Origin: Streptosporangiales bacterium
GTDB taxonomy: Bacteria; Actinomycetota; Actinomycetes; Streptosporangiales; WHSR01
Direction of reading: 5' to 3'
Length of the DNA: 64,000 nt
Assembly: GCA_009379995.1 (NCBI GenBank)
Contig: WHSR01000005.1
Span: forward strand, 41,429 to 105,428
In this document: in pieces, positions 4,200-60,690 of the stretch
Layout: each line of letters opens with the position of its first letter
How positions within the stretch are numbered: position 1 is the stretch's first letter
Translations under genes and position numbers: made by a program
Notes under the pieces: generated by a model
What the model saw: the letters and a program-made list of their open reading frames with translations, nothing else
Told to the model about the DNA's origin: nothing
Database searches by the model: none

Positions 4200-4224
4200 G
4201 GGCACCGCCCCGCCCCCTATGGTT

Positions 4225-4276
4225 GTGATCTTGCAGAAATTTGAACCGGCCCGAGGTTGAATTTCTGCAAGATCAC
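4225..4276. repeat. Palindromic REP/MITE-like element, copy 1
   Basis: GTGATCTTGCAGAAATTTGA-accggcccgagg-TTGAATTTCTGCAAGATCAC; outer pairing TGGTT/GACCA; between convergent genes. Confidence 0.9.
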
Positions 4277-5220
4277 GACCAAGCGGATGCCGCGGCGCGT
4301 TCAACCGCGACGCGGGCGAGGGCCCAATCCTGGGCGGAGACACCCACCGACTTGAACACAGTGGGCGCCTCGGATGCCTGCCGCTCGGCGGCAAGCAGCA
4401 GGTCGCCGACCTCGACGAGGCGCTTCTCGTCCAGCTGACCGGCCTCGATCGCCTGGATGACGTCGCCTGCCCCGGCGAGCGCCGCTTCCCGCTGGTCCAC
4501 CACTACCCGTGACCGGGCCAGCAACTCGGCCGGCACCTCGCACATGTCGGGGCGGTAGGAGCCGATGGCGTTGACGTGCGTCCGCGGGCCGACATCCGCC
4601 GCGTCGAACACCGGTGCCCGCGCCGTGGTCGCGCAGCACACAACCTCGGCGCCCCGTACCGCCTGCGAAGATGTCGGCACGACCCGAACGTCGAGCTCGG
4701 TGTGCGCCTCGGCGAGGGTGGCGGCGAGCTCGTTGGCGGTTGTTTCGTTGCGACTGAAGATCCGTACCTCGCGGACCTGTCGCACGGCCAGAACCGCCTC
4801 GACCTGATCGCGGGCCTGCGCCCCGGAGCCGATCAGCGCAAGGGTGCTGGCGTCCGGTGCGGCCAGCAGGTCGGTGGCGACCCCCGAGGCCGCACCGGTC
4901 CGCATGGCGGTGACGGTCTCACCGTCCAGCACCGCGAGCGGCTCCCCCGTCGGCCCGTCGAACCACAGCACCACGGCATGCAGCAACGGCAGTCCGCGCC
5001 CCGGGTTCTCCGGCCGCACGGTCAGGATCTTGGTCACGAACCCCTCGGGGTTCTCGACGGGCCGCCCGGCCATCAGCAACTCCGTGCCGCCGCCCACGGC
5101 GACCCGCTGCGGTGCGAGGAACTGGCCGCCGGACACCAGCCGGAATGCCTCCCGTACCGCCTCGACCGCGTCGGCCATGCTCACCAGACGGCGGAGATGC
5201 CCGCCGTCGATGATTCGCAT
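4273..5220 (-). CDS. Ornithine cyclodeaminase/mu-crystallin family protein
   Basis: ATG 5220 overlaps the upstream stop; TAMRTGAASG, GSGAQA, HVNAIGS and FKSVG motifs; stop codon lies inside palindrome copy 1. Confidence 0.88.
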   Translation of the reverse strand: MRIIDGGHLRRLVSMADAVEAVREAFRLVSGGQFLAPQRVAVGGGTELLMAGRPVENPEGFVTKILTVRPENPGRGLPLLHAVVLWFDGPTGEPLAVLDGETVTAMRTGAASGVATDLLAAPDASTLALIGSGAQARDQVEAVLAVRQVREVRIFSRNETTANELAATLAEAHTELDVRVVPTSSQAVRGAEVVCCATTARAPVFDAADVGPRTHVNAIGSYRPDMCEVPAELLARSRVVVDQREAALAGAGDVIQAIEAGQLDEKRLVEVGDLLLAAERQASEAPTVFKSVGVSAQDWALARVAVERAAASAWS

Positions 5221-5876
5221 CACGCGGCCTGCTGCGGGGACACCGGCTTGCTCTGCTTGAGGATGAGGAAGGTCATCCAGAGCACGAGCAGATAGAGCGG
5301 GAAGCCCAAGGCCACCCTGGCCACACCGAGCGGGACGAGTTGCGCGGTCAGATAGAGCGGTACGAGCACGCCGAGCCGCACCACGAACATGCCGACCCAC
5401 ACCAGGCTGGCGAGCGCGTACGCACGGCGTCGGACGGGATCGCGTCGCCAGCCGAGGCCCTCGCCGAACACCGGGCCGAGCAGTATTCCCAGCAGCGGCC
5501 AGCGGGCCAGCAGCGAGACGGCGAACGCCGCCAGGTAGCCCCCATTAATGAGCAGGCCGGGCAGGAAGAAGTTCTCCGGGCGTCCGGTGCGGTGCGCGAT
5601 ATAGGCGGCGATACCAACGCCCACGAACCCGGCGAGCGCGTGCTGCAGGGTCTCCCGCCGCAACAGCCGGGCGAGGAAGAGCACCGCGCCCACCGCGACA
5701 GCGGCCCACACCGCCGGCTGCAGGCCACCGCCCAACACGAACACCATGACGAAGACGATCCCGGGCAGCCCGGTGTCGAGGAGACCCCGAGGCCCACCCA
5801 TGGCCGAATAGACCGATGGCTCGGCCTCCTCGGCTTGCGGAGCGTTCGGGGCGTGCTGGGCCTGCCCGGTGTTCAT
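5220..5876 (-). CDS. DUF3159 family membrane protein
   Basis: MGGPRGLLDTGLPG, ENFFLPGLLIN, RWPLLG; conserved synteny with trkA and the OB-fold gene. Confidence 0.85.
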   Translation of the reverse strand: MNTGQAQHAPNAPQAEEAEPSVYSAMGGPRGLLDTGLPGIVFVMVFVLGGGLQPAVWAAVAVGAVLFLARLLRRETLQHALAGFVGVGIAAYIAHRTGRPENFFLPGLLINGGYLAAFAVSLLARWPLLGILLGPVFGEGLGWRRDPVRRRAYALASLVWVGMFVVRLGVLVPLYLTAQLVPLGVARVALGFPLYLLVLWMTFLILKQSKPVSPQQAA

Positions 5877-6289
5877 GCGCCACCGACCGGGCGCAGCTGA
5901 TAACGAGGGTTGAACATCACCTTGCGACCGTTCTGAACGGAGACCAGCCCCTCCGCCAAGAGCATGCGACCCGGCTCGATGCCACCGATCCGCCGCCTGC
6001 CCAACCAGACGAGAGTGACCATGTCCGAGCCATCGTACAGGTCGGCCTCCAGGCAAGGTACGCCGCTGCGGGGACGCAGCGTCACCGTCCGCACAGTGCC
6101 GCAGACGGCGGCCCGCTGCCGCTCTCCGCAGGAGGCGATGGGGGTGGCACCGGCCTCCTCCGCGTCCTCTTGCAGTTCCTCGGCCTCCAGCTCGGCCCGG
6201 CTGGAGGTCCACCGGTGAAGCAGGCGCCGCAGACCACGCCTCGCGCCGTCCGGGCCGTGCTCCGGTGCCCCGCGCGACACCTCACTCAT
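5873..6289 (-). CDS. OB-fold nucleic acid-binding protein
   Basis: LEADLYDGS..VTLVWLGRRRIGGIEPG...FNPRYQL. Confidence 0.85.
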   Translation of the reverse strand: MSEVSRGAPEHGPDGARRGLRRLLHRWTSSRAELEAEELQEDAEEAGATPIASCGERQRAAVCGTVRTVTLRPRSGVPCLEADLYDGSDMVTLVWLGRRRIGGIEPGRMLLAEGLVSVQNGRKVMFNPRYQLRPVGGA

Positions 6290-6366
6290 GTCTGGCAAGG
6301 GTAGTCCCCTCGCGGGGATCATGGATCCAAGCGACAATCCACCCCCGGCTCGGTCACCGGAACGAG

Positions 6367-7128
6367 TCAGCGGGTTTCGGTGATCTCCGGGCCGCGGCGG
6401 AACGGGTTGATGTCGAACCGATCTCGCTCCTCCGCGGAGGCCTCTTCGCTCCCCGCCTGCCGAACGTCCCGCGGGAGCCGCAGTTCGAGCAGCGTGTGCG
6501 GGGGCATGGGTGCGTCGCCGCGTACCACGACGATGCCGCGGAAGACCTCCTCGAGCCGCCCGGCCGCGTCCGCGCTCTCCGCCGCGGGCCCGGTGAACAC
6601 TCCGCGCAGCAGCCACCGCGGGCCGTCCACCCCCACAAACCGGGCGGGAAGCGGGACGACCCCGCGGTCCGGCATGTCGGTCGGCACCCGGCCCCGGAGC
6701 TCGGTGCCGAACTCCCCCTCGACTTCCTCGGCGCTGCCGTCGGCGCCCTGCAGGTCCCGTACCACCTCGCGCCGTACATCCGCCCAGATGCCGGTGCTCT
6801 TGGGCGCAGCGAGAGCCTGTATCTGCAACGCGCTCTGTTCGTGCAGCACGGTGGCCGCTATGACCTGGTCGTCGACAATGTTCGCCTGGACCTCAAGGTC
6901 GGGACCCACCGGCACACGCAACGCGCCGAGGTCCACCCGCTCGATGTCGGGCGCGGGCTCGTCGACGTCCCAAGGCCCCTCCTGCCGCTCTTCCGGAACC
7001 TCGGACTCCTCGAAGTCCTCGGAGCCCTCGGGGTCCGAGGACTCCTCTGTGTCGGTGTCGAGGCTGTCGTACACCTCCAGGTCCTCGGAGGAGTGCCTTG
7101 CGTGACGACCGGGCCGGCGTCGAAACAT
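6367..7128 (-). CDS. DUF3710 family protein
   Basis: GPWD, RVDLGALRVP, ARFVGVDGPRWLLRGV, NPFRRGPEITETR; adjacent to dut. Confidence 0.88.
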   Translation of the reverse strand: MFRRRPGRHARHSSEDLEVYDSLDTDTEESSDPEGSEDFEESEVPEERQEGPWDVDEPAPDIERVDLGALRVPVGPDLEVQANIVDDQVIAATVLHEQSALQIQALAAPKSTGIWADVRREVVRDLQGADGSAEEVEGEFGTELRGRVPTDMPDRGVVPLPARFVGVDGPRWLLRGVFTGPAAESADAAGRLEEVFRGIVVVRGDAPMPPHTLLELRLPRDVRQAGSEEASAEERDRFDINPFRRGPEITETR

Positions 7129-7130
7129 GG

Positions 7131-7610
7131 TCAGCTTCTCCCGGCGCCGAAGAAGGCGCCCTGCTCGCCGTGACCGCCGGTGGAGCCGTGCCCGCCCTCA
7201 CCGCGGGCGGACCCGGGCAGGGTTGCCGCCTCGTGGAAGGCGGCCCGCTCGACCCGCTGGACGACGAGCTGGGCAATGCGATCCCCGCGCTCAAAGCGCA
7301 CGGGTTCCTTGAGATCGGTGTTGATGAGCGTGACTTTGATCTCTCCCCTATAGCCGGCATCCACCGTGCCGGGCGCGTTGACCAGCGTCACCCCGTGCCT
7401 CGCGGCGAGGCCCGAGCGCGGGTGGACGAAGGCCGCGTAGCCCTCCGGAAGTGCCACCGCGATGCCGGTGCCGACGGTGGCCCGCTCGCCCGGAGCGAGT
7501 TCGAGGTCCACGGCGGTCACCAGATCCGCCCCGGCGTCTCCGGGGTGCGCATAGGCCGGCAGCGGCAGCTCGGCGTCCAGCCGGCGAACGAGAACATCTA
7601 CGTGGTTCAC
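7131..7610 (-). CDS. dut: dUTP diphosphatase
   Basis: [28 protein letters not shown] and [10 protein letters not shown] motifs. Confidence 0.95.
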
Positions 7611-7656
7611 GCTCGTTGACCCTAAACCATCGCGGCGGTCGCCCAAGATGGGAGGC

Positions 7657-8406
7657 ATGCGACTGTCCGGCACCACGGCCCTCATCACCGGCGCGTCCTC
7701 GGGCATCGGCGCCGCCATCGCCGTCGCGCTCGCGGCGGCAGGGTCGCGCCCGCTGCTGATGGGCCGCGACGAAGACCGGCTCGCCCGCGTCGCGCGAAGC
7801 ACCGGCGGGGTGCCCATCGTCGCCGACCTGGCCTCGCCGGAGGGTGTCGCGGACGCGGCCGGCAGGGCATTCGAGAACGCCGAGCACATCGACGTTCTGG
7901 TGAACAACGCCGGCATCGGCTGGGCGGGACCGCTGGAGGCGATGTCGGAGGGCGACGTGGCCCGGCTCACCGACACCAACCTGGTCGCCCCGATCTACCT
8001 CACCCGCCGGGCACTGCCCCGCATGGTCGAGCGCGGCGGGCACATTCTGTTCGTGACCTCCATCGCCGGGTGCACGGGGGTGCGTGAGGAGGCGGTGTAC
8101 GCCGCCACCAAGGCCGGGCTGCACGTCTTCGCCGAGGGCCTTCGGTACGAGGTCGCCGGCAACGGCGTAGGCGTCTCCGTCGTCGTTCCGGGCGTTGTCG
8201 CCACCCCGTTCTTCGAGCGCCGCGGGACGCCGTACGGGCGCCGCCGGCCGCGTCCGGTGCCGGCCGAGCGGGTGGCCCGGGCAGCCGTCGACGCGCTCCA
8301 GCACGACCGCGCCGAGGTGTTCGTGCCCCGATGGATGCGGCTTCCGGCACGCCTGCACGGCGGGATGCCGGGAGCGTTCCGCGCCCTCGCCGCCCGCGGC
8401 GGCTAG
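7657..8406 (+). CDS. Short-chain dehydrogenase/reductase
   Basis: [12 protein letters not shown], catalytic YAATK. Confidence 0.9.
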
Positions 8407-8423
8407 CCCTCTCCCCCTTGGCC

Positions 8424-8474
8424 GTGATCTTGCAGAAATTCAAACGCATCCGCGTTGAATTTCTGCAAGATCAC
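8424..8474. repeat. Palindromic REP/MITE-like element, copy 2
   Basis: GTGATCTTGCAGAAATTCAA-acgcatccgcg-TTGAATTTCTGCAAGATCAC; outer arms TCCCCCTTGGCC/GGCCCAAAGAGGGGGA; between convergent SDR and hpnH. Confidence 0.9.
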
Positions 8475-8495
8475 GGCCCAAAGAGGGGGAACGGC

Positions 8496-9506
8496 CTAGC
8501 CGCCGCGGGCGGCGCGGAGCGACTGCGTCAGCGAGCCCACCGTGGCGAAGACCGCGGTGGGCTCGTACCCGCAGTGCGCCATGCAGTTGGCGCAGCGCGG
8601 GTCCCGGCCGCGGCCGTACTTGGACCAGTCGGTGTCCTCGATCAGCTCCCGATAGGTCTTGGCGTACCCGTCCGACATCAGGTAACAGGGCCGCTGCCAG
8701 CCGAACAGCGAGTACGACGGGATCGCCCAGGCGGTGCACTCGAAGTCGACCTTGCCCTCGAGGAAGTCCAGGAAGAGCGGGGAATGGTTCAGCCGCCAGC
8801 GCTTCCGCCGCCCGTCGGCGAAGGCCTTGCGGAACAGCTCCCGCGTCTCCTCGACGCCGAGGAAGTGCTCCTGGTCCGGCGCCTTCTCGTACGCGTACGC
8901 CGGCGAGATCTGCATTTGGTCGACCTCGGCCTCGTCGTTGAGGAAGTCGAGCACGTCGATGATCGTCTGCGGCGTGTCGGTATTGAAGAACGTGGAGTTG
9001 GTGTTGACGCGGAACCCGCGCCGCTTGAGGTCCTTGATCGCCTCGACCGCCTCGTCGAAGACACCGTCCTGGCTCACCGAGGCGTCGTGCCGCTCGCGCA
9101 GGCCGTCGACGTGGATGACCCAGGAGAAGTACTGCGACGGCTTGAAGTCGAAGCGGTCGAGACGCTTGCGTACGAGCAACGCGTTGGTGCAAAGGAAGAC
9201 GTACTTCTTGCGCTTGACGAGCTCGTTGACCATCTTGTCGATCTCGGGGTGCATGAGCGGCTCGCCGCCGGCGATGGACACCATGGGCGCCCCGCACTCC
9301 TCCATCGCGGCGACTGCCTGCTCCACCGGCATCCGCTGCTTGAGGATGTTCGCGGGGTGCTGGATCTTCCCGCATCCAACGCACGCCAGGTTGCAGGCGA
9401 ACAGCGGTTCCAGCTCGACGAGCAGCGGGAACTTCTGCCTGCGCCGCAACTTCTGCGCCATGATGTAGCTGCCTATCCGCAGGCTCTGCCGCACTGGCAT
9501 CGCCAT
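8496..9506 (-). CDS. hpnH: Adenosyl-hopene transferase, radical SAM
   Basis: LEPLFACNLACVGCGKI (CxxxCxxC), YAYEKAPDQEHFL, CANCMAHCGYE; within the shc operon. Confidence 0.93.
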   Translation of the reverse strand: MAMPVRQSLRIGSYIMAQKLRRRQKFPLLVELEPLFACNLACVGCGKIQHPANILKQRMPVEQAVAAMEECGAPMVSIAGGEPLMHPEIDKMVNELVKRKKYVFLCTNALLVRKRLDRFDFKPSQYFSWVIHVDGLRERHDASVSQDGVFDEAVEAIKDLKRRGFRVNTNSTFFNTDTPQTIIDVLDFLNDEAEVDQMQISPAYAYEKAPDQEHFLGVEETRELFRKAFADGRRKRWRLNHSPLFLDFLEGKVDFECTAWAIPSYSLFGWQRPCYLMSDGYAKTYRELIEDTDWSKYGRGRDPRCANCMAHCGYEPTAVFATVGSLTQSLRAARGG

Positions 9507-11065
9507 CAGGGTCGCACCTCCTTAGGCAACGTGAAGTGGACCTGCTCGGTGGTCACGGTCCGCTCCTCCACCTCGACGGGGCCGAGTCCACGAAGAGCCC
9601 CGATGACCTCTTCCACCAGGGCTGGCGGGGCGGATGCCCCGGCGGTCAGCCCCACGGTCCGGCTCCCCGCGAGCCAGTCCAGCTCGATGCCCCCCGGATC
9701 GTCCACGAGATACGCCGGCGTGCCGGCACGCCTCGCGACCTCGACCAGCCGCTTGGAGTTGGACGAGTTGATCGACCCCACGACGAGCAGGAGGTCGGCG
9801 TCCGCCGCGACGGCGCGTACGGCGTCCTGCCGGTTGGTCGTCGCGTAGCAGATGTCTTCCGAGGTCGGTCCCTCTGCCGTGGGGAAACGCTCCCGGATGG
9901 CGTCGACGACCACCTGCGCCTCGTCGGTGGCCAGGGTGGTCTGCATCAGGTACGCCACCCTGTCCGGATCCTCGACCCGCAGCTTCGCCACGTCCTCCGG
10001 GGTCTCGACCAGGACGCTGGAGTCGGGAACCTCACCGAGCGTGCCCTCGGTCTCCTCGTGCCGGGCATGCCCGATGAGGACTATCAGGTTCCCGCGGTAG
10101 GCGAACCGGCGTGCCTCGTTGTGCACCTTGGTGACCAGCGGACACGTCGCGTCGATAACGGTCAGCCCGCGGTCCTCCGCCTCGGCCCGTACGGCCGGGG
10201 AAACCCCGTGCGCGGAGAACACCGCCGTGGCGCCCTCGGGTACCTCGTCGAGCTCCTCGACGAACACCGCGCCGCGGCGTTCCAGGTCACGCACCACGTG
10301 CACGTTGTGCACTATCTGCTTGCGCACGTAGACCGGCGGGTCGTACAGCTCGAGCGCGCGCTCGACCACCTCGATCGCCCGCTCGACCCCCGCGCAGAAC
10401 GACCGCGGGGCCGCCAGCAGCACGTTGCGGGAGCCGGCTGCCCTCCCCCAGCGGGCAAGCGCGGGACCGACGCGGCGCAGCGCCGCCGTCGCCCGCCAGC
10501 CGGCGCGGACCGTCGACGGGCTGCGCAGCGGCCGATCGGGGGTGTCGACCACCACCCGGACCACCGCGAACGGGCGTCCCTCCGCCGCCTCCGCCAGCGC
10601 GCCGGATTCCATGTCCACGGCCAGCGCTCCGCGGCCGCCGAGCTCGGCCCGCTCGGCGGCGCCGACGATGTGGTCGGCGGTGACGATCGGGCCGGTGTGT
10701 ACGGTCAGTCCCTCTCGGCGCAGCTCCCCCGCCAGCAGCTCGGCCGACGGACACGGGATCGTCCGCCCACCGTCCACGGCCCTGTCGATGACCTCGGTGG
10801 CGACGACAACGTCTCCCGGCGCGAGGTCACCGCGAACCGCGCCGCCGAAGCCCACCACCGCCTGTGCGTCGAAGGGCCGGCCGCGCAGCGCCTCCGCGGT
10901 CCGTCGGGCGCGCCGCGTGCCGTATCCGGTGCGGACGACCGATGCGTCGGCTGGACCATCCAGTCCTCGGCGGACGCTGCGCGCCTCGATAGCGAGGGGA
11001 GCACACACCAACAGCCGAGGATTCGCCCCTGTATTCGCAGAGTCATTTCTCATGACTGCATCCAT
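9506..11065 (-). CDS. ispH: Fusion: HpnG-like nucleoside phosphorylase domain plus 4-hydroxy-3-methylbut-2-enyl diphosphate reductase
   Basis: N-terminal ~205 aa PNP/UDP fold (GFGGAV, GDVVVA, AVDMES, VRVVVD); C-terminal IspH ([44 protein letters not shown]). Confidence 0.9.
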
Positions 11066-12990
11066 GAACTGGCGCCACCTCCTATGTACCGTCCGAGGGC
11101 ACTCAGCGGGAAGATCAGTCGGTACAGGTGGTAGTTGATGTAGAAGTCGCCGGGGAAGCCGGTGCCGGTGAAGTACGGCTCGTCCCAGGTGCCGTCACCG
11201 CGCTGGTGATCGACCAGCCAGCCGACACCCCGGTCCACTGCCGACGAGCGCTCGCCCGCGGCCAGCAGGGCGATCAGCGCCCAGGCCGTCTGCGAGGCGG
11301 TCGACGCCCCGCGGCCGGCCCAGCTCGGGTCGTCGTAGGACCGCAGGTCCTCGCCCCAACCACCGTCGGCGTTCTGATGTCGTTCCAGCCAGGCCACGGC
11401 GCGCCGGACGGCCGGCTTCTCCGGGAGCACGCCGGCGGCAACGAGGGCCGGCACCACGGCTCCGATCCCGTACACGTAGTTGGCTCCCCAGCGTCCGAAC
11501 CACGAACCGTCGGCTTCCTGGGCACGCAGCAGCCAGACCACGCCCCGTCGTACGGCCCGACTCGTCCGCAGGCCCTCGCCGCACAGGGCCTCGACGATGT
11601 GCGCGGTGACGTCGGCGGATGGGGGGTCGATGACCGCGCCGAAGTCGCAGAACGGCAGCTTGGTGCACAGCTGCTGGGTGTTGTCGGCGTCGAACGCCGC
11701 CCATCCGCCGTCCCGCGACTGCATGCCGACCAGCCAGGCGACGGCGCGCCGTACGGCCGCGTCGATGTCGGCGGAACGGGTCGGATGGCGGACCCTGCGC
11801 AGCGCGAGGAGCACCTCCGAGGTGTCGTCGGTGTCTGGGTAGGCGTCGTTGTCGAACTCGAACGCCCATCCCCCCGGAGCGACGTGCGGGCGGCGTACCT
11901 GCCAATCCCCCGGGCCCTTGACCTCCTCGCCCAGCACCCAGTCCGCCGCGCGGACGAGCGAGGGGTGATCATCCGGGAGTCCGGAGTCCGTCAGCGCCGT
12001 GACCGCCAGGACGGTGTCCCAGACCGGCGACTGGCACGCCTCCATCCGGCGCACCATGCCGTCCGGGGTCTCCTCCCGGATCGTAAACCGGTCGAGGCCG
12101 GTGAGGCCGCGCTTGATGATCGGGTGGTCCAGCCCGTACCCGAGCAGGTGCAGTGCGATCAACGAATACACCCACGGCGGCTGGATCCCGCCCCAGCAGC
12201 CGTCGAGCTCCTGCCGGGCGATGACCCACTCGGCACATCGGCGCAGGGCAGCCGCACGCACCGATCGGATCGGGCGGCGTTCGTAGACGTGCAGCGCCCT
12301 GTCCAGCCCGGCGAACGCCCCGCTCCAACTCACGGCCGGGGCGGCGCGGGGCGGGCGGCGGCCTGTACGCAGCTCGGCGACCGTAAAGGGCAGGGACCGG
12401 CGCGGGCGCAGTGTCCCGACGACGGTGAGCGGTACCACCGTCTGCCGCGCCCAGCACCCCCAGTCGTAGACGTTGAGCGGGAACCAGGTCGGCAGGTAGA
12501 TCAGCTCGGGCGGCATAACCGGAAGCTCGTCCCACGACCACTCGCCGAACAGCGCGAGCCAGATCCTGGTGAATACCCGGGCGGCCTCCACCCCGCCCTG
12601 GTCACGGATGTAGTCGGCCGCGCGCCGCATGTGCGGCGCCTCGATCGGGTCGCCGGCCAGCCGCAGCGCCACGTACGCCTCGACGGTGGTGGACAGGTCC
12701 GCTGGGGCGCCGTAGAAGTTCCCCCAGGTGCCGTCGTCACGCTGCTGGGAACGGATCCACCGAGCGGCTTCCTCGGTTTCGCGCTCGCCGCGGATGCCGA
12801 GGAACTCCCGCAGCAGCAGATCCTCGGCGTCCATCGTCACGTTGGTCTCGAGCTCACCCTTCCACCACCCGTCCCCGTGCTGCAGCGACAGCAGGTGCTC
12901 GCGCGCCCGGCCCAGCGCCTCGGCCGCCTCCGCCCGGAGCGCCGGGGGCTCGGAGACGGGGACGTCCGCGCGTGGAGAGGTTGTCGTCAT
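11050..12990 (-). CDS. shc: Squalene-hopene cyclase
   Basis: DTDD catalytic motif (YPDTDDT), QW repeats, [21 protein letters not shown]. Confidence 0.96.
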
Positions 12991-14006
12991 CAACGATCCC
13001 GGGAGGTGACGTAGCGGGCGATGTGCAGGAACTCCTGGCGTACGTGGTCCGGCATGTCGATCTGGTGCAGGCATTCCTCCGCGGCGGCGAGCTGGCGGGC
13101 GGACTCCTCCTCCACCCACGTCCGGCCGCCGGCCCCCTCGACCGCCACGGCGGCCTCGTGGAGGTCCTCCTCGGTAAGGGGCTCCGGTCGGTGCAGCAGC
13201 TCCCTGAGCCGTGCCGAGGCGGGCGCCCCGGCCGCCAGCGCCGCGACGACCGGCAGCGACTTCTTGCGGGTCCGCAGGTCGGACAACACCGGCTTGCCGG
13301 TGACCTCCGGGGCTCCCCAGATGCCGAGTAGGTCGTCGACGAGCTGGAAGGCCAGGCCGAGGTGGGCGCCGAAGCCGGCAAGCCCGGCGGCGAGCCTCGG
13401 CGGGGCGTTCACCAGCATCGCCCCGATCGAGCACGAGCACGCCAGCAGCGCGGCGGTCTTGTCGCTGGCCATGGTCACACACTCGTCGAGAGAGACGTCG
13501 ACACGGTCCTCGAACTCCAGGTCGGCGGTCTGGCCGGCGATGAGTCGCTGGGTGGCCGCGGACAGGCACCGAGCGGCCCAGTACGCCCCCTGCGAGCCCT
13601 CTTCCAGCAGGATCTCCTCGGCCAGGGTGAGCAACGAGTCACCGGCGAGGATCGCCGAGGACGTCCCGAAGACGGTCCAGGCGGTGGGACGGTGCCGCCG
13701 CTCTCGGTCGCCGTCCATGATGTCGTCGTGCAGCAGCGAGAAGTTGTGCACGAGCTCCACGGCGACGGCCGCCGGTACTCCCCGCTGCGGCGTCGAGCCG
13801 GCCGCCTGTGCGGACAGCAACGCCAGCGCGGGGCGCAGCGCCTTCCCGCCGCCCGCTCCGGTGGGCCGCCCGTGCTCGTCCAGCCAGCCGAGGTGGTAGC
13901 CGGCCACCCGGCTCATCCTGGGCGCGAGTCGATCGACGGCGGTCCGCAGCGCGGGTGTCACCAGGTCGCGCGCGGTGGTGACCGCCTCGGGCAGGGTGGC
14001 GGTCAT
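12990..14006 (-). CDS. Polyprenyl diphosphate synthase
   Basis: GGKALRP, FARM HDDIMDGD..RR, KTA, AFQLVDDLLG. Confidence 0.92.
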   Translation of the reverse strand: MTATLPEAVTTARDLVTPALRTAVDRLAPRMSRVAGYHLGWLDEHGRPTGAGGGKALRPALALLSAQAAGSTPQRGVPAAVAVELVHNFSLLHDDIMDGDRERRHRPTAWTVFGTSSAILAGDSLLTLAEEILLEEGSQGAYWAARCLSAATQRLIAGQTADLEFEDRVDVSLDECVTMASDKTAALLACSCSIGAMLVNAPPRLAAGLAGFGAHLGLAFQLVDDLLGIWGAPEVTGKPVLSDLRTRKKSLPVVAALAAGAPASARLRELLHRPEPLTEEDLHEAAVAVEGAGGRTWVEEESARQLAAAEECLHQIDMPDHVRQEFLHIARYVTSRDR

Positions 14007-15412: not shown

Positions 15413-16290
15413 ATCGGCACACCCGCCAGCGACCGCACGGCGACCAGGACCTTCTCCCAGCCGGTCAGCGAGGTTCTGCTGCGCAGAACCGCGGCGGGGT
15501 CGGCGGCGATCCGGTCGTGCAGGCCGCGATAGATACCTGCCATTGCGGCGGTGCACGCCGCGCTCCGCCGGTCCAGCATCGACAGCAGCGGCAGTCCCTG
15601 CGCATACCACTCCCGGGCCCGCTCCGCCTCGAAGCGCACGAGCTCAACGAACGGGGCTCCCGGGTCACGGAGGTAGCCGGAATCCTCCGGCTCCAGCCGA
15701 ACCCCGAAACGGTTGAGATCCTCGGCCGGAAGATAGGTGCGGCCGGTGAGGTGGTCCTCCCGTACGTCCCGCAGGATGTTCGTCAACTGCAGCGCGACGC
15801 CCAACGCGTCGGCCCTCGAGGCGGCGACCCGCAGGTCTTCCGCCCCGAAGACGCCCAGCGACAGCCTGCCGATCGACCCGGCCACGCAGCGGCAGTAGTG
15901 CAGCAGCTCGTCGAAGGTGACGTACGTGGTCCCCCGTACGTCCGCCGCGCAGCCCTCGATGAGCTCGTCGAACGCCGCGAGCGGGATCGGGAAGCTTGCG
16001 GCGGCGTCGGCCAGCGCGACCAGAACCATGTCGTCCAGGTGATCTTCGAGGCGGCCGCTACGCACGTCCTCCAGATCACGCCGGGCGTCCTCCAGCCGGA
16101 CGAGCTTCTCCTCGTGTGGCAGGTCGCCGTCGCCGATGTCGTCGATGCGCCGCGCGAACGCGTACACCGCGCTGAGCGCCCGCCGCTTCGGCGGGAGCAG
16201 CAGCCGGATCCCGTAGGAGAAGTTGCGTGCCTGTGTACGGGTGATGGACTCGCAGTGTCGGTAGGCGTGGTCGACGTCGACCGCTGTCAC
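15409..16290 (-). CDS. hpnD: Presqualene diphosphate synthase
   Basis: ARNFSYGIRLL, RIDDIGD, ALQLTNILRDVRED; alternative start GTG 16302. Confidence 0.9.
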   Translation of the reverse strand: MTAVDVDHAYRHCESITRTQARNFSYGIRLLLPPKRRALSAVYAFARRIDDIGDGDLPHEEKLVRLEDARRDLEDVRSGRLEDHLDDMVLVALADAAASFPIPLAAFDELIEGCAADVRGTTYVTFDELLHYCRCVAGSIGRLSLGVFGAEDLRVAASRADALGVALQLTNILRDVREDHLTGRTYLPAEDLNRFGVRLEPEDSGYLRDPGAPFVELVRFEAERAREWYAQGLPLLSMLDRRSAACTAAMAGIYRGLHDRIAADPAAVLRSRTSLTGWEKVLVAVRSLAGVPI

Positions 16291-16298
16291 GTCCCGTC

Positions 16299-17882: not shown

Positions 17883-17893
17883 TCCTGGAGGAC

Positions 17894-18484: not shown

Positions 18485-18500
18485 CCCCTTGCTGGTAGCC

Positions 18501-18551
18501 GTGATCTTGCAGAAATTCAACCCCATGGATCTTGAATTTCTGCAAGATCAC
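18501..18551. repeat. Palindromic REP/MITE-like element, copy 3
   Basis: GTGATCTTGCAGAAATTCAA-ccccatggatc-TTGAATTTCTGCAAGATCAC; between convergent genes. Confidence 0.9.
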
Positions 18552-19363
18552 GGCCGATGGGGGGTGGACACCCCCATGACCTGCCCCCGCAGGTCGTTGC
18601 GAACGAGTTCGGCCAGCCGCCGGGTACCCCCGTAGTTCAGGGTTCCGCCGGCGACCGCGCCGGTGAGGAACGGCCCCAGGGTGGAGAGGTTACGGCCGAA
18701 GACGCGCATCAGCCGCCTGCGCAGGGCGTGTTTGGCGGCCGCGCCGAGAGCCAGCGTCAACGAGTCGGGCTGCAGGGGATTGACACCTCGCCGCTTGCCC
18801 CAGGCCTGGAGGAAGACGACGCTTCGCTGGGTTCGGGTGCCCGGGATCTGCACGCCGTAGGCCTCGTGCAGCTCCGCGATGAGTTTCATCTCGATCGCGG
18901 CGACGACGAGGGTCTCCGCGGCGATCTGTACCGGGGCGGAAAGAAGAGTGGGCGGGGCTGCGTACTCGGCGGCGGCGAGCACGCCGCCGGCCGCGCCGAC
19001 CGCCGCCGTGGACTTGGCGGCGGTGTTCGTGAGGGAGTCGGCCAGCGCCTCGCCGGTACGGCCACGGTGATGCGCCTGCAGCGTCTCGAGGTCCCGTATC
19101 GGAACTCGGGGGGCGATCTCATCGATGAACACGTCGGCAAGCCACCGCCCGCCGGCGACACCTCGAGCACCGGCCCGGCGGGCGCCGTCGGCCAGGGCGG
19201 CGGCGAGCCGCACCATCAGCCGGCCTCGCGCCTGTCGGCTCAGGTCCTCCTCGGAGGAGAGCCGGCCGACGAGATCACCGACCTCGGTGATCGAAGCGGG
19301 CTTCTCACCTCGCCCGCCGTGTTCCGGTCGGCCGGCCTCCCGCTGCTCCGACGGCGGGGTCAC
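18548..19363 (-). CDS. Conserved actinobacterial hypothetical protein
   Basis: APRVPIRDL..L, AETLVVAAIEMKLIAELHEAYG, PFLTGAVAG; follows DUF4193; stop codon lies inside palindrome copy 3. Confidence 0.8.
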   Translation of the reverse strand: MTPPSEQREAGRPEHGGRGEKPASITEVGDLVGRLSSEEDLSRQARGRLMVRLAAALADGARRAGARGVAGGRWLADVFIDEIAPRVPIRDLETLQAHHRGRTGEALADSLTNTAAKSTAAVGAAGGVLAAAEYAAPPTLLSAPVQIAAETLVVAAIEMKLIAELHEAYGVQIPGTRTQRSVVFLQAWGKRRGVNPLQPDSLTLALGAAAKHALRRRLMRVFGRNLSTLGPFLTGAVAGGTLNYGGTRRLAELVRNDLRGQVMGVSTPHRP

Positions 19364-19379
19364 TACCGTCTCCCGTGCC

Positions 19380-35001: not shown

Positions 35002-35016
35002 CGCGCTCCCTTGGCC

Positions 35017-35068
35017 GTGATCTTGCAGAAATTCAAAGCGGCGAGAATTTGAATTTCTGCAAGATCAC
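35017..35068. repeat. Palindromic REP/MITE-like element, copy 4
   Basis: GTGATCTTGCAGAAATTCAA-agcggcgagaat-TTGAATTTCTGCAAGATCAC; outer TGGCC/GGCCA; between convergent genes. Confidence 0.9.
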
Positions 35069-35085
35069 GGCCACAGGTTGGAGGG

Positions 35086-53422: not shown

Positions 53423-54877
53423 ATGGCCATCTCCCAGGAGCTCTCGGCCTCCGTCGAGCACGCTGAGGACAACCCCTACCTCGTCGGCGTCTACGCTCCC
53501 GTCCACACCGAGATCACCGCCGATGATCTGGAGATCGTCGGCACGATCCCCAAGGACCTCGACGGCGTCTTCGTCCGCACCGGGCCGAATCCACAGTACG
53601 AACCCCAGGGGCGCTACCACTGGTTCGACGGCGACGGCATGCTGCACGCGATCCGCTTCGCGGACGGGCGCGCGAGCTACCGCAACAGGTGGGTGCGCAC
53701 GAAGGCGTTCCAGAAGGAGGCACGCGCCGGCCGCACCCTGTGGACCGGGGTGATGGAACACCCCGGCGGCAACGAGGCCGTCAACCGCAAAGGGCTGCCG
53801 CTCAAGGACACCGCGAACACCAGCGTGCACTACCACAACGGCAAGGTCCTCGCCCTGTGGTACCTCGCCGGCGAGCCGTACGCCGTCGACCCGCACACCC
53901 TGGACACGATCGGGGTGGAGACCTTCGACGGCACGCTGCAGTGCGACATGTCCGCCCACGCCAAGGTCGACGAGCGCACCGGCGAGCTGTTCTTCTTCGA
54001 CTACGGGCCGCGCCCGCCGTACCTCAGGTACGGCGTCGTGGACGCCGGCGGCCGCGTCACCCACTGCGTCGACATCGACCTGCCCGGCGCGCGTATGCCG
54101 CACGACATGGCCATCACCGACAGCTACGCGATCCTGATGGATCTGCCGCTGTACCGGGACCCCGAGGCGGCGCGGGAGGGCCGACACAAGATCATCTTTG
54201 ACCGGGAGCTGCCCTCCCGGTTCGCGGTGATCCCCAGACGAGGCACCGGCAGCGAGGTCCGCTGGTTCGAGGCCAGCCCGTGCTACATCTACCACATCAT
54301 CAACGCCTTCGAGGACGGCCCGGAGGTCGTCCTCGACGTATGCAGCGTGAGCCGCCCGCAGCCCATCGGATCGGGAAACCCGCTCGCACGCATGCTTTCG
54401 TACCTGCGGCTCGACGCCCACCTGCACCGCTACCGCTTCAACGTGCGTACCGGCGGCACCCGGGAGGAGCGGCGCGACGACGACAACACCGAGTTCCCGG
54501 CGATACCGACGCATCTCACCGGGCGACGCAGCCGGTACGCGTACAACGTCCACATCTCCCCGAAGGAAACGCTGCTCTTCGACGGGCTCGTCAAGTACGA
54601 CCTGACGACGGGGACGAGCGAGCGGTACGCCTTCGGTGAGGGCCGCTGGGGCAGCGAGACGCCGTTCGCCCTGCGGCCCGGCGCGGTCGCCGAGGACGAC
54701 GGCTACCTGGTGTCGTTCGTGCAGGACGAGCGGGAAGGCCGGTCGGAGGTGGTCATCCTCGACGCCGGTGACATCGCGGCCGGCCCGGTCGGCCGGGTTC
54801 TGCTGCCGCAGCGGGTGCCCATCGGCTTCCACGCCACCTGGGTCCGCGGTGACCAGCTACCCAAGGGACCGTCGTGA
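53423..54877 (+). CDS. Carotenoid/stilbene cleavage oxygenase family protein
   Basis: NPYL.G.YAP, RTGPNP, HWFDGDGM, four Fe-ligating His (SAH, MPHD, YHIIN, GFHA). Confidence 0.92.
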   Translation: MAISQELSASVEHAEDNPYLVGVYAPVHTEITADDLEIVGTIPKDLDGVFVRTGPNPQYEPQGRYHWFDGDGMLHAIRFADGRASYRNRWVRTKAFQKEARAGRTLWTGVMEHPGGNEAVNRKGLPLKDTANTSVHYHNGKVLALWYLAGEPYAVDPHTLDTIGVETFDGTLQCDMSAHAKVDERTGELFFFDYGPRPPYLRYGVVDAGGRVTHCVDIDLPGARMPHDMAITDSYAILMDLPLYRDPEAAREGRHKIIFDRELPSRFAVIPRRGTGSEVRWFEASPCYIYHIINAFEDGPEVVLDVCSVSRPQPIGSGNPLARMLSYLRLDAHLHRYRFNVRTGGTREERRDDDNTEFPAIPTHLTGRRSRYAYNVHISPKETLLFDGLVKYDLTTGTSERYAFGEGRWGSETPFALRPGAVAEDDGYLVSFVQDEREGRSEVVILDAGDIAAGPVGRVLLPQRVPIGFHATWVRGDQLPKGPS

Positions 54878-56589
54878 AGTGCCACCCGGCCGAGCGGGTC
54901 GCCGAGTACCGGGCGAAGGGCTGCTGGACGGAGGAGACAGTCGACGGCCTGCTGCGCGCCCAGATCGCCCGCAGGCCGCACGCGCCGGCGATCGTCGACC
55001 CGCCGAACAAGAAGGACCTGCTCGGTCTCTCCCCCTTCCGGCTGACCTGGGCCGAGCTCGACGAGCGCGTCGACAGGCTCGCCGCCGTGCTGGGTGCGTA
55101 CGGCGTGCGGCAGGGCGACGTCGTCGCCGTCCAGCTGCCCAACAGCGTCGAGATCGTGGAGGCGTCGCTCGCGATCATCCGGTTGGGCGCGATCGTCACA
55201 CCGTTCCCGGTGCAGTACCGGGAGTACGAGCTGATCCAGCTCGGCCGCCTGGCGAAGGTCACCGCGTTCGTCACGGCGACCCGGATCGGGGATCGCGCGA
55301 ACGCAGAGGCAGTGCGGGCGCTCCGCGCCGAGATCCCGACACTGCGCACGGTGCTCGCCGTCGGCCCCGGGGCACCCGAGGGGGTCGTCGCGCTCGACGA
55401 GGTTCTGGAGCGCCCGTACAACGCCGCCGCGCTGCGTGCGTACCTCGACGGCCTCGCCGTCGACCCGAACGACTGCGTGACGATCTGCTGGACGTCGGGC
55501 ACCGAGGACACCCCGAAGGGCGTGCCGCGCTGCAGCTACGACTGGTTGGCGATCTGTTGGGCCTGCGTGGACGCGCCGCGGCTCACCGAGAACGACGTGC
55601 TGCTCAACCCGTTCCCGATGGCCAACATGGCGGGCATCGCCGGCATGTTCCTGCCGTGGCTTCGGGTCGGCTGCGTGCTCGCCCAGCACCACCCGTTCGA
55701 CCTGCCGACCTTCCTCGCCCAGGTCGCCGAGGAGCGGGTCACGTACACGGTCGCCCCGCCCGCGTTGCTGTCCATGTTGCTGGCCCGGGAGGACATCCTC
55801 GGCCGCGCCGACATCTCCTCGCTGCGGCTCATCGGTTCCGGCTCGATGCCGTTGTCCCCGGCGATGGTGGCGGGCTGGCAGGAGCGCCACGGCATCGGGA
55901 TCATCAACTTCTTCGGTTCCAACGAGGGCGTAGCGCTGCTCAGCGACCCGGTCAACATCCCCGACCCGGCGGAGCGGGCGCGGTACTTCCCCCGGTACGG
56001 CGCCGAGGGGATCAGGTGGGCCTCCCGGATCGCCGACTGGATGTCGGTCAGACTCGTCGACCCGACATCCGGGGAGGAGATCGCCGAGCCGGGTCGCCCG
56101 GGCGAGCTGGCGATCAAGGGCCCGACGCTCTTCGCCGGCTACCTTGCCGGCACGGGGGCCGCCGAGCCGTTCGACGCGGACGGCTACCTTCGCACCGGGG
56201 ACGTATTCGAGATCGCCGGCGATCGGGCGCAGTACCTCCGCTACGTCGACCGGGCCAAGGACCTCATCATCCGCGGCGGCATGAACATCGCGCCCGCCGA
56301 GGTCGAAGGGCTGCTCTCCGGGCACCCGAGGATCGCCGAGTGCGCGGTCGTCGGCTACCCAGACGAGGTCCTGGGCGAGAGGTGCTGCCTGTTCGCCGTG
56401 CCCACACCGGAGGCGTCGCTCGGTCTCGACGAGGTAGTCGCTTATCTGCGGGAACAGCGCATCGCGCCGTACAAGCTGCCGGAGCGGCTGGAGATCGTCG
56501 ACGCGCTGCCGCGCAACCCGCTCGGCAAGGTGGTCAAGCACGAGCTGCGCGACCGACTCGCGCCGGGCGGCTCGCCTTCGCGCTCGTGA
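54874..56589 (+). CDS. AMP-binding acyl-CoA ligase
   Basis: WTSGTEDTPKG, FGSNEG, RTGD, KDLIIRGG.NI, YKLPE, LPRNPLGK; stop codon lies inside palindrome copy 5. Confidence 0.9.
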   Translation: MKCHPAERVAEYRAKGCWTEETVDGLLRAQIARRPHAPAIVDPPNKKDLLGLSPFRLTWAELDERVDRLAAVLGAYGVRQGDVVAVQLPNSVEIVEASLAIIRLGAIVTPFPVQYREYELIQLGRLAKVTAFVTATRIGDRANAEAVRALRAEIPTLRTVLAVGPGAPEGVVALDEVLERPYNAAALRAYLDGLAVDPNDCVTICWTSGTEDTPKGVPRCSYDWLAICWACVDAPRLTENDVLLNPFPMANMAGIAGMFLPWLRVGCVLAQHHPFDLPTFLAQVAEERVTYTVAPPALLSMLLAREDILGRADISSLRLIGSGSMPLSPAMVAGWQERHGIGIINFFGSNEGVALLSDPVNIPDPAERARYFPRYGAEGIRWASRIADWMSVRLVDPTSGEEIAEPGRPGELAIKGPTLFAGYLAGTGAAEPFDADGYLRTGDVFEIAGDRAQYLRYVDRAKDLIIRGGMNIAPAEVEGLLSGHPRIAECAVVGYPDEVLGERCCLFAVPTPEASLGLDEVVAYLREQRIAPYKLPERLEIVDALPRNPLGKVVKHELRDRLAPGGSPSRS

Positions 56590-56636
56590 TCTTGCGGAAA
56601 TTCGAGTCGAGGGGGTTCGAATTTCTGCAAGATCAC
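56586..56636. repeat. Palindromic REP/MITE-like element, copy 5
   Basis: GTGATCTTGCGGAAATTCGA-gtcgagggggt-TCGAATTTCTGCAAGATCAC; between co-directional genes. Confidence 0.9.
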
Positions 56637-56710
56637 GGGCAAAGGGGCGGGGGCACGGATCGTGTCAACCGCCGTACGGAGCGTGGATCCGATCACTATG
56701 CTCACGTCGG

Positions 56711-58784: not shown

Positions 58785-58796
58785 CGAACCGGAGCC

Positions 58797-59747
58797 TCAG
58801 CGACCCGAGCCGGTGGCGGGGCCGGGCAGGAAGTAGGCCTCGCCACGCCGCAGCGTTCGGTCGCAATGCGGGCAGATCAGCTCGGGCGCGAGGAGCTGCC
58901 CGCAGTCGCGGTGGACGATGTCCAGCTGTCGTCCCTCGGGCGTGGGGAGAAAGCGTTCGCCCCACTCGACGAGCAGCACCAGCACGTCGAAGAACGCCCG
59001 TCCCTTGTCGGTGAGGCGGTACTCGGCCCGCCGTACTCCCTCCGCAGGTGGGACGTGGCGCAGAACGCCCAACTCGCCGAACCGGCGCAGCCGCTCGGCC
59101 AGCACGCTGGGCGGAATGCCGAGCTCGTGCTGGAAGTCGCTGAACCGGCGGACACGCAGGAAGGCCGCCGCGAGCAGCGCCGTACTCCAGCGGTCGCCGA
59201 GAAGCGCCATGGTCTCGGGGAAGAACGACGGAGGGTTCCTGGGGTCCGGGCTCGAGCCGGGGTGCCGGTGCCGGCGCGGCGGGCTCGACCGGTAATAGTC
59301 GCCGCCCGAGCGATGGACGTCCACGTCGGTGTCGTACGGGGTGACGCCCTTGCCGCACCGGCCGCATCCCAGCGCGGGAACGATGCTGGCGCCGCAGGTG
59401 CCGTGGGTGAGCTCGGGCAGGTCGTCGGCGTGCCGGGCGACCCACCGCTTCTCCCAGGCCCAGATCGACACCAGGATCCGCCAAGTCTCCAGGCCGCTTT
59501 CGGTGAGCCGGTACTCGTGCCGGGCCCGGCCGCCGTCCCGGTAGGGGCGCTTCTCCAGCAACCCGCTCGCCACTAGGTCGCGCAGCCGGACGGCGAGCAC
59601 GGACTCGGAGACGCCCAGCGCGTCCCGCCACCCCTGGAAGCGCTGAACACCGAGAAAGGCGCGCTGCAGGATGAGCAGGGTCCACTGATCGCCGAGCAGC
59701 AGTACCGCCCGGCCGATCGCGCTCGGGGACCGAGGGGCCGTGGTCAT
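58797..59747 (-). CDS. Tandem double-HxlR transcriptional regulator
   Basis: Two repeats of LGDxW..L...AF...RF....L..RL...EYRLT plus H..CG...C..C zinc-ribbon tails; ATG 59747. Confidence 0.88.
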   Translation of the reverse strand: MTTAPRSPSAIGRAVLLLGDQWTLLILQRAFLGVQRFQGWRDALGVSESVLAVRLRDLVASGLLEKRPYRDGGRARHEYRLTESGLETWRILVSIWAWEKRWVARHADDLPELTHGTCGASIVPALGCGRCGKGVTPYDTDVDVHRSGGDYYRSSPPRRHRHPGSSPDPRNPPSFFPETMALLGDRWSTALLAAAFLRVRRFSDFQHELGIPPSVLAERLRRFGELGVLRHVPPAEGVRRAEYRLTDKGRAFFDVLVLLVEWGERFLPTPEGRQLDIVHRDCGQLLAPELICPHCDRTLRRGEAYFLPGPATGSGR

Positions 59748-59763
59748 CGCTTCAGGTACGTGC

Positions 59764-60560
59764 TCAGCGCTTCCGACCGACCCCGCTGTAGAACATGGTC
59801 TTCTCCGGCTCCCGAACCTCTCGATCGTGCCGCACTCCGGCGCGTAAACCAGGCCCGGCTCCACCAGCTCGAACCCGTCGAAGAACCGCAGGATTTGCTG
59901 GTGGGTGCGCCCGATGATCGGAGCGGTGGCGCTCTGGTACACCTGCTCGATCTTCGCAGCGTCCTCGGGGCGGCTGTCGCCGGTCCCGTGCGAGATGACC
60001 AGGTAGCTGCCGGGCGCCATCGCGTCCCGCAGCTCAGCCACGATCCCGGCCGGATCCTCGTCGTCGGTGATGAAGTGCAGGATCGCGACCAGCAGGACCG
60101 CGATCGGCTGATCGAAGTCGATCAGCCGTTGTGTCTCGGCGCGGTTGAGGATCTTGCTCGGCTGGCGCAGATCCTCGTTGATGATCGTGGCGCTGTCGGT
60201 ATGCACCAACAGCGCGTTGCCGTGCGCCAGCACCACCGGGTCGTTGTCGACGTACACCACCCGGGCGTCCGGCACGAACTCCCGAGCCACCTCGTTAACC
60301 TGCCCCTGGGTGGGCAGCCCGGTCCCGATGTCGAGGAACTGCCGGATCCCCGCCTCACCGGCCAGGAACCGTACCGCCCTGCCGAGAAAGGCCCGGCTCT
60401 CCCGGACCGCGCGACGCCCGTCCGGTACGGCCGTCAGCACCCGTTCGGCAGCCTCCCGGTCGGCGGCGAAGTTGTCCTTCCCTCCGAGGTAGTAGTCGTA
60501 CATCCGGGCGACGTTCGGTGTGGTCGGGTCGATGCCGGCCGGTGACCACTCCTCCGCCAT
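59764..60560 (-). CDS. Actinobacterial SAM-dependent methyltransferase, frameshifted near 59833
   Basis: PNVARMYDYYLGGKDNF..DR, QFLDIGTGLP, YVDND; the natural ending W-R...YSGVGRKR* is in another frame, with stop at 59764. Confidence 0.85.
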
Positions 60561-60619
60561 CGGGCGACTCTCCTCCTCAGGCCTGCGGGTCTGCATGACA
60601 TGGTAGTTGCCCCTTGTTC

Positions 60620-60667
60620 GTGATCTTGCAGAAATTCGACCTGCCAGTTGAATTTCTGCAAGATCAC
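60620..60667. repeat. Palindromic REP/MITE-like element, copy 6
   Basis: GTGATCTTGCAGAAATTCGA-cctgccag-TTGAATTTCTGCAAGATCAC; outer TTGTTC/GAACAA; downstream of the sugar ABC operon. Confidence 0.9.
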
Positions 60668-60690
60668 GAACAAAGAAAGAAAGAAATGGG

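Follow-up and report, generated by a model that had tools for sequence, protein, structure and literature searches.

A dispersed and probably mobile palindrome family at gene 3' ends in a Streptosporangiales genome

Six AT-rich hairpins were analyzed in a 64,000-nucleotide stretch of the draft genome of a Streptosporangiales bacterium (GenBank assembly GCA_009379995.1; G000:C93:41429-105428; hereafter, the window). They are best explained as copies of a genome-wide, nonautonomous mobile palindrome of ~80 to 85 bp, present at ~180 loci and either tolerated at the 3' ends of genes or co-opted there as an RNA hairpin, a reading to which we give a probability of roughly 0.7. The assembly itself (G000) comprised 5.80 Mb in 168 contigs, with 69.8% GC and 94% completeness, and the GC content of the window was ~70%. 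Within the window, the arm GATCTTGCAGAAATT formed six inverted pairs (12 matches), whereas 100 shuffled sequences gave a mean of 0.02 and none reached 12, bearing out the six hairpins that an earlier note on this DNA had placed there. As RNA, all six copies were continuous hairpins of 23 to 32 bp, with ΔG values of -43 to -62 kcal/mol and z scores of -7.6 to -13.5. Allowing up to two mismatches, 320 arm matches were found in G000, made up of 133 paired hairpins and 54 unpaired arms, and a genome-wide count of the kind the earlier note had suggested, made with an nhmmer profile, recovered a dispersed family of 180 loci in the 5.8 Mb.

Anatomy and placement of the family

The unit was an imperfect palindrome laid out as CCCCTCTTGGYCGT-GATCTTGCAGAAATT-(inner part)-AATTTCTGCAAGATC-ACGRCCAAGAGGGG, consisting of a degenerate C-rich/G-rich outer stem, a near-invariant core (CGT-GATCTTGCAGAAATT) and an inner part with a hypervariable center. 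The conserved end was CCGTGATC, and CGTG was present in at least 128 of 132 copies. Among the 132 complete copies, Watson-Crick pairing was 97 to 100% at arm offsets -3 to +14 and 81 to 92% at -6 to -4, fell to ~50 to 60% at -13 to -7 and was at the background of ~30% beyond -17, with an arm length of 23 to 38 bp per copy. The core was much more conserved than the loop and the outer stem, which fits a sequence-specific constraint and agrees with the sequence-specific recognition proposed in the earlier note. The different loop of each copy, also claimed there, held within the window; genome-wide, however, the inner part fell into subfamilies, and only its central 4 to 10 nucleotides (nt) were hypervariable. 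These subfamilies included S1 (TCAAGA-NNNN-TCTTGA, 37 copies), S2 (CAAA..TTTG, 26 copies), the asymmetric S4 (18 copies) and a group with ACG/ATG plus TCGAA (25 copies). Each S1 arm held a nested TCTTG..CAAGA repeat, which is dimer-like yet not separable. Moreover, an asymmetric type B with a different right arm (11 copies) was never self-paired, and remnants with a deleted center occurred in various lengths. Fold-back copying of one arm per copy was rejected, considering that type B (n = 11) and S4 (n = 18) keep identical bulges and mismatches throughout.

Co-variation of the stems was assessed against a control in which left flanks were matched to right flanks drawn at random from other copies. 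Copy-specific co-variation was strong only at offsets -5 and -4 (0.88 and 0.92 observed versus 0.57 and 0.58 shuffled, z of ~10) and modest at -11 to -9 (z of 2 to 3). Outer stems that co-vary from copy to copy, as described earlier, were thus confirmed at offsets -5 and -4, but further out the stem mostly followed a shared degenerate consensus, CCCCTCTTGG / CCAAGAGGGG. The outer types GGC, GGT and GCC occurred in similar proportions across S1, S2 and S4, indicating that the outer and inner parts are unlinked; exchange between copies inside the invariant arms, or several master copies, could have produced this pattern. A self-complementary 2-bp target duplication behind offsets -5 and -4 was rejected, since outer ends of the GGT/ACC type form an inverted complement, not a direct repeat.

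Genes were called with our own script based on GC content at third codon positions (GC3), which gave 5446 genes and 87% coding sequence. The 180 loci comprised 71 in a convergent, 71 in a co-directional and 8 in a divergent context, 24 "genic" loci, mostly at gene ends, and 6 at contig edges, so that 150 were in spacers. With 798 convergent, 3656 co-directional and 824 divergent spacers as the background, this amounted to 0.80, 0.19 and 0.04 copies per kb of spacer, respectively (~20-fold for convergent versus divergent). Among the 179 gene ends facing a copy, 156 had their stop no further out than 30 nt from the arm and no deeper than its TGA: 101 stopped 17 to 30 nt ahead of the arm, immediately beyond the outer stem, 19 stopped inside the outer stem, and 36 used the TGA of GTGATC, the remainder stopping deeper (7) or further off (16). 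In this way, the element gives stop codons to about one-fifth of the adjoining genes. In co-directional spacers, the copy lay close to the upstream stop and far from the following start. The median convergent spacer measured 77.5 nt with a copy versus 30.5 nt in the 726 of 798 without one, indicating that the element is essentially the entire spacer; since copy-free convergent spacers are so short, the tight geometry is largely explained by the compactness of the genome. In the window, the same calls placed three copies between convergent genes and three between co-directional genes (Table 1), instead of the four and two given in the earlier note, and three facing genes (4273-5223, 18548-19363 and 54874-56589) ended at the element's own TGA.

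Table 1. Copies of the palindrome in the window, with window coordinates and gene strands in parentheses
Copy	Extent	Arm pair	Context	Remarks
1	4211..4290	4227/4260	Convergent spacer: 3537-4199 (+) vs 4273-5223 (-)	Asymmetric inner part TGAACCGGCCCGAGGTTG; minus gene stops at TGA inside GTGATC (TCA 4273-4275)
2	8410..8488	8426/8458	Convergent spacer: 7648-8406 (+) vs 8496-9506 (-)	Entire spacer is the element
3	18487..18565	18503/18535	Convergent spacer: 17894-18484 (+) vs 18548-19363 (-)	Minus gene ends on the element's TGA (18548-18550)
4	35003..35082	35019/35052	Co-directional spacer	Begins right behind the stop of 34168-35001 (+); next gene, 35386-38001 (+), ~300 nt downstream
5	56572..56650	56588/56620	Co-directional spacer	Gene 54874-56589 (+) stops at TGA inside GTGATC; left arm with one uncompensated change (GCGG vs CTGC), the only arm mismatch among the six copies
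6	60606..60681	60622/60651	Co-directional minus-strand spacer	Closely follows the stop of 60691-61581 (-); 58797-60596 (-) starts downstream of it

Two further hairpin families were observed in G000 beside the window family (F1). Family F2 consists of cgccGAGATCTATGTTGTGGGGG, an oriented conserved loop of ~18 nt (TCGTTTTGTCCGRTTCGG) and then CCCCCACAACATAGATCTCggcg; its 94 hairpins, e.g., at C14:70645 and C102:13362, are also located at gene 3' ends, none of them in the window, and its end CCGAGATCT is similar to the end CCGTGATCT of F1. Family F3, with arms CGATGAATGGNCCA, gave 22 exact arm matches and 112 with up to two mismatches (e.g., C137:11630-11690, C103:9540-9620 and C128:52650-52740).

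In-frame copies, variant alleles and related hairpins

Only 2 to 3 of the 180 loci were clearly intragenic, and some open reading frames (ORFs) continued across a copy, GC3 being of the coding type on either side. One such copy, flanked by the UvrD-helicase and UvrD_C Pfam matches, lies in an AdnB-like UvrD-helicase/PD-(D/E)XK protein and encodes ~22 to 24 amino acids; all six aligned homologues (G002, G004, G006, G008, G010 and G012) were 14 to 23 residues shorter at this site. Another, between the CbiG_mid and CbiG_C Pfam matches of a CbiG-methylase fusion, encodes ~25 amino acids that are missing in G003 and G005. Because this CbiG insert carries the C-rich and G-rich outer stems, the outer stems are part of the unit, and their derivation from the target was rejected on the same ground. 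In a third read-through (C44:14209-15948, L028), a single ORF leads from a LivM-like permease through an in-frame F1 copy into a LivG-like ABC ATPase, which represents either the loss of a stop codon or a translational fusion that the element created. F1 copies were also seen in two further long ORFs (C147:58274-60097 and C128:1725-3821), upstream of recognized GT4 glycosyltransferase and MalQ domains, and these copies may belong to a 5' leader instead of coding sequence. Moreover, one convergent gene pair that has its own hairpin in G022, a genome of another genus, has an ortholog in G000 with overlapping stop codons and no element.

Variant alleles were found in contigs of public sequencing runs from two studies, representing organisms ~5 to 15% diverged from the window. 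Many of these contigs, originating from other copies, piled up on copy 2, where their loose ends fell at 8412-8418 and 8475-8478. Copy 3 was retained in some contigs, one of them with a changed loop, and was replaced by 44 other letters in another, while the copy 1 site of one contig held 22 letters instead, keeping CCCCCTCTTGG. As the outer stem belongs to the unit, the 22-nt and 44-nt alleles are probably deletion remnants; their reading as empty (virgin) sites was downgraded, considering that one of them keeps the left outer stem.

The wider distribution of the palindrome was assessed in a collection of genomes of the order, in which no other genome shares the family or genus of G000. None of 400 other genomes had the exact arm pattern; a looser model found related families, and thus "lineage-specific" is true of the inner AT-rich arm only. 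A covariance model built from ten copies matched 15 of 31 genomes, or 13 of 29 when G000 and the unpublished G001 were excluded. Hairpins with the same end were located in G022 (CTGGTCGTGACCTT..), G030 (CGTTGATCTCGGAGATATT..), G011 (CCGTGATCATGAA..) and G017 (CCGTGATCTTGCA..), with a gene end at or near the hairpin in all four; the flanking genes converge on it in G030, G022 and G017, and the neighboring gene of G011 stops at the TGA within the hairpin. The tag pattern CGTGAYCTT-N20-50-AAGRTCACG occurred in 19 of 111 genomes and 8 of 33 genera (17 of 109 and 6 of 31 excluding G000 and the unpublished G009), compared with 2 of the 111 genomes for the reversed pattern used as a control. G001 and G009 enter into these counts only. 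It was present at 22 places in G022 and at 1 to 8 places in nine of the 31 genomes of genus g5, although several single, nonpalindromic matches may be due to chance. Inner arms are GC rich in the related families of other genera, so AT-richness is not the common feature; F1 would instead be the local AT-rich-armed branch of a wider, order-level hairpin group, with the tag CCG(T/A)GATC(T) / CGTGAYCTT common to all. As an observation in its own right, G022 (5.3 Mb, no Y1 transposase match) has a 50-nt palindrome, CKTGACCTTTYCGGGGTCTC..., with ~155 arms on each strand, e.g., at L056 1501-1576.

The family had been called undescribed in the earlier note, and indeed no description was found in the literature searched; it is not isolated, however, given the CGTGAYCTT hairpins with other inner arms in other genera. 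In full-text literature, the arm strings were absent, the 11-mer tags appeared only in unrelated primers, and no account of REPINs (paired repetitive extragenic palindromic [REP] sequences) or REP-associated tyrosine transposases (RAYTs) in Actinobacteria was found. An arm-pattern scan of genome contigs returned at least 22 matches, those listed being single unrelated hairpins, including one Streptomyces match that was inspected and proved unrelated, and scans of metagenome contigs gave only three unrelated low-GC palindromes.

Search for a mobilizer and competing explanations

Several results weigh against the mobile-palindrome reading and its RNA role. Matches to Y1_Tnp (PF01797) numbered zero in G000, with positive controls matched in 6 of 14 genomes, and since the assembly is 94% complete, this absence is unproven; the hairpin-rich G022 and G010 had none either, and 11 of 30 relatives have Y1 genes. 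In G000, no gene was repeatedly bracketed by copies, no insertion sequence (IS) of the assembly had the family arms (CGTGATCTTGCAGAAATT) as its ends, and no direct repeat of 3 to 8 bp exceeded the shuffled control at symmetric boundaries 5 to 25 nt outside the arm, so that a DDE-type mechanism, as for miniature inverted-repeat transposable elements (MITEs), is unsupported. The public-run contigs revealed no true insertion polymorphism among close relatives, both variant alleles resembling internal deletions, and the core was intact in copies whose flanking genes were ~5 to 12% diverged, which host-level constraint fits equally well as mobility. No U-tract followed the hairpins, the flanks being of the AAGGGG type without a T run. 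Sense-strand mismatches at offsets -6 to +14 in the 56 co-directional copies comprised 10 G-U and 10 A-C, small numbers in which no RNA-level wobble bias appeared. In addition, the gene ends used throughout are the output of our caller rather than annotation.

Further candidates were examined for the mobilizer. Three Y1 loci of relatives had no flanking tag hairpins. Genes lying between two copies were rejected as ordinary host genes, encoding an F420H2-dependent reductase-like protein, an S49 peptidase, MgtC, a Macro-domain protein and a deacetylase-like protein, the last named from its sequence. The only long element between two arms was a degraded ISL3-like IS (C145:37620-38635; L001 2121-3136), with ends GGCTCTTCG.. 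and a frameshifted transposase; being a single degraded copy with unrelated ends, it was also rejected. This IS sits between two truncated F1 copies, and its flanks, GAATTTCT and AGAAATTC, are one 8-mer on opposite strands, an arrangement that fits two ISL3 insertions into the AT-rich arm followed by recombination and suggests that the arm is a preferred ISL3 target. Thus, the dispersed family of REP, REPIN or MITE kind with an unseen mobilizer, as supposed in the earlier note, was upheld by the 180 loci, the lack of Y1 matches, of a bracketed gene and of an arm-ended IS in G000. Its finding that the window has no RAYT gene extends to the whole assembly; a check of repeatedly flanked genes, which it had recommended, left the family without a visible mobilizer; and the arm matched the end of no IS in the assembly, an identity that it had held would speak against its idea.

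How the hairpins might act at gene ends bears on the alternatives. The family accounted for 61 of the 100 and 32 of the 50 most stable 3' regions among 5410 gene ends, and G000 encodes RNase III. The GC-rich hairpin plus U-tract of a canonical intrinsic terminator was not found at the copies, and a terminator scan of window positions 1-20000 placed none there. That scan gave 7 canonical terminator-like sites (GC hairpin plus T run) versus 5.8 expected from shuffled sequence, i.e., no enrichment. Rfam returned no match in the window at the gathering score, and permissive E values gave only generic models of miRNA-precursor hairpins, all below the cutoffs. By analogy with TRIT (see below), REP and Correia elements, the copies may act at 3' ends, as a barrier or a site of processing. 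Their location is compatible with the bidirectional terminator or mRNA stabilizer suggested in the earlier note. Selection on the hairpin as RNA, which had also been put forward in the earlier note, was unsupported, considering the equal G-U and A-C counts and a co-variation confined to two positions and unlinked to the inner subfamily.

One alternative is that the hairpins evolved in the host as sequence-specific 3'-end or termination elements of the TRIT (Tuberculosis Rho-independent terminator motif) type, kept and multiplied by selection, with a host protein reading the double-stranded RNA (dsRNA) core. The very narrow stop-codon geometry, as described for TRIT in the excerpted account (PMC3152330), the large share of the most stable 3' regions, the near-invariant core beside a drifting loop and outer stem, and the retention of copy 3, once with an altered loop, in contigs ~5 to 12% diverged are all consistent with this. 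Nevertheless, we consider it rather unlikely: the in-frame copies in the AdnB-like and CbiG proteins cannot terminate and have homologues without them, 726 of 798 convergent spacers do without a copy at a median of 30.5 nt, the orthologous convergent pair in G000 has overlapping stop codons, and neither a U-tract nor a sense-strand G-U bias was seen. Moreover, selection in the host offers no way to place one 80-bp unit at 180 sites without mobility.

A role at the DNA level, in which the copies are bound or cleaved by a DNA-binding protein between converging units (a nucleoid-associated protein, a topoisomerase or an AT-binding silencer) and the RNA hairpin is incidental, would suit an AT-rich arm in a 69.8% GC genome, the enrichment between convergent genes, the conservation of a GATC-containing tag across genera, and a symmetry that is kept with G-U not favored over A-C on the sense strand, as for constraint on duplex DNA. 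Gyrase and IHF have been proposed as binders of some enterobacterial REPs. Such a role appears improbable here, with GC-rich inner arms in the families of other genera, no candidate protein identified, and intragenic copies and deletion remnants that resemble selfish DNA more than regulated sites. There is likewise little chance that the family is a classical MITE, i.e., an internally deleted IS whose arms are terminal inverted repeats moved in trans by a DDE transposase elsewhere, lost or unassembled. The element is nearly all two long inverted repeats, its copy number and dispersion are MITE-like, and a multicopy IS could be missing from a draft of 168 contigs; yet the symmetric boundaries lack a target-site duplication of 3 to 8 bp above the shuffled control, the arms enclose no longer element (the ISL3-like IS on C145 has its own ends and was inserted into two copies), G000 has no arm at its contig ends, and collections of plasmids, phages and viruses gave no match to the family.

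For the mobile palindrome that we favor, copies would persist mainly where harm is small, i.e., behind stop codons and above all between convergent genes, and also at coding 3' ends, where the TGA in GTGATC would serve as a new stop, or rarely in frame in interdomain linkers. The conserved tag and core would be the recognition site of a copying agent that is probably not a Y1/RAYT transposase of this assembly and would leave no target duplication. By analogy with TRIT and with the Correia elements of Neisseria, a transcribed copy would form a perfect RNA hairpin of 23 to 38 bp without a U-tract, most likely defining or protecting the 3' ends of mRNAs from either strand. It would do so by blocking exonucleases or by serving RNase III as a substrate, as proposed for both of these families, and not as a classical intrinsic terminator. 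Tentatively, and with considerable doubt, the CCG(T/A)GATCT hairpins might even constitute an order-wide actinobacterial superfamily of mobile palindromes, whose tag is read by an unrecognized enzyme of neither Y1/RAYT nor DDE type, or by a host pathway, and which delivers a stop codon and a long dsRNA hairpin to gene ends in one step. If so, TRIT-type 3'-end elements would have arisen as selfish DNA that was domesticated, and the mobilizer and the RNA- or DNA-binding factor could be sought by means of the conserved tag. In practice, the family will mislead gene callers and assemblers in this lineage.

Comparison with known systems

The family is best filed as an element of the REP/MITE/TRIT kind, in a lineage without prior description in the literature searched, that is positionally very like the TRIT of Mycobacterium. 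With REPs and REPINs, as portrayed in the main text of a REP survey (PMC3733652), it has in common dispersed extragenic palindromes with a terminal tag and variable loops, several families per genome, frequent transcription as hairpins, some intragenic copies and no target duplication. It is likewise of high copy number and mostly extragenic (180 loci, 150 in spacers). In contrast, the REPs of that survey, which lists no family from actinobacteria (the word "actinobacterial" is absent from its main text), measure 20 to 40 bp, with stems of 8 to 9 bp and a GTAG (or CGTC) tag (PMC3733652), whereas here the tag is CGTGATC on a single palindrome of ~80 bp instead of dimers of 20 to 40 bp. The RAYT partner is also missing, as G000, G022 and G010 have no Y1 match. 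According to the same text, no dedicated transposase is reported for CGTC-tagged REPs, including RPE-4 and RPE-6 of Rickettsia, which have stems of 8 to 9 bp, loops of 4 to 5 nt and a CCA tail and occur in Proteobacteria, Chlorobi, Bacteroidetes, Spirochaetes and Thermotogae (PMC3733652). These resemble the present family in a tag starting with CGT and in copies inside genes (PMC3733652), but their tag is CGTC and not CGTG, so the likeness is a lead only.

In-frame palindromes are tolerated in G000 as they are in Rickettsia, and the copies in the AdnB-like and CbiG proteins are absent from homologues. Rickettsia palindromic elements (RPEs) lie in frame in protein genes, to which they add a short peptide; here, by contrast, most copies are located behind stop codons, and the host is free-living with a high GC content. 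Correia elements, in which distinct terminal repeats enclose an internal segment and which make a TA duplication, are like the present family nonautonomous inverted-repeat elements transcribed into long hairpins, although no target duplication was found here. According to the excerpted report, RNase III acts on the Correia hairpins of Neisseria, which shape 3' ends (PMC13714241). As for IS-derived MITEs, which are marked by a target-site duplication and by a parent IS with the same ends, neither mark was found for the present family, at symmetric boundaries and in the assembly, respectively.

The closest parallel is TRIT, with 147 copies in Mycobacterium tuberculosis and reports, in the excerpts cited, from Mycobacterium only; for it, a factor binding the dsRNA motif and, more recently, cleavage by RNase III have been proposed (PMC3152330, PMC13714241). 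Going by the same excerpts, both families are high-copy, sequence-conserved and palindromic, thus giving bidirectional hairpins, and both are lineage restricted and without a classical terminator tail. Both are placed very narrowly at the stop codon, partly overlapping the coding end (PMC3152330), with 156 of 179 facing gene ends in this position here, and both make up the majority of highly stable gene-end structures, the share being 61 of 100 in G000. Mobility and in-frame insertion into genes are not described for TRIT in these excerpts, and the present family has signs of both. The two families are likened here by description and position.

High-GC actinobacteria have few classical terminators, and to our knowledge, no 3' hairpin family with a conserved sequence other than TRIT has been described in the phylum. 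Beside it, the family of G000 adds an independent and larger case, whose in-frame insertions, deletion remnants, lineage-specific subfamilies and cross-genus tag are clear marks of a mobile origin. The family could thus be used to test whether elements of this sort shape 3' ends and, as for CGTC-type REPs, what moves palindromic repeats that have no RAYT.

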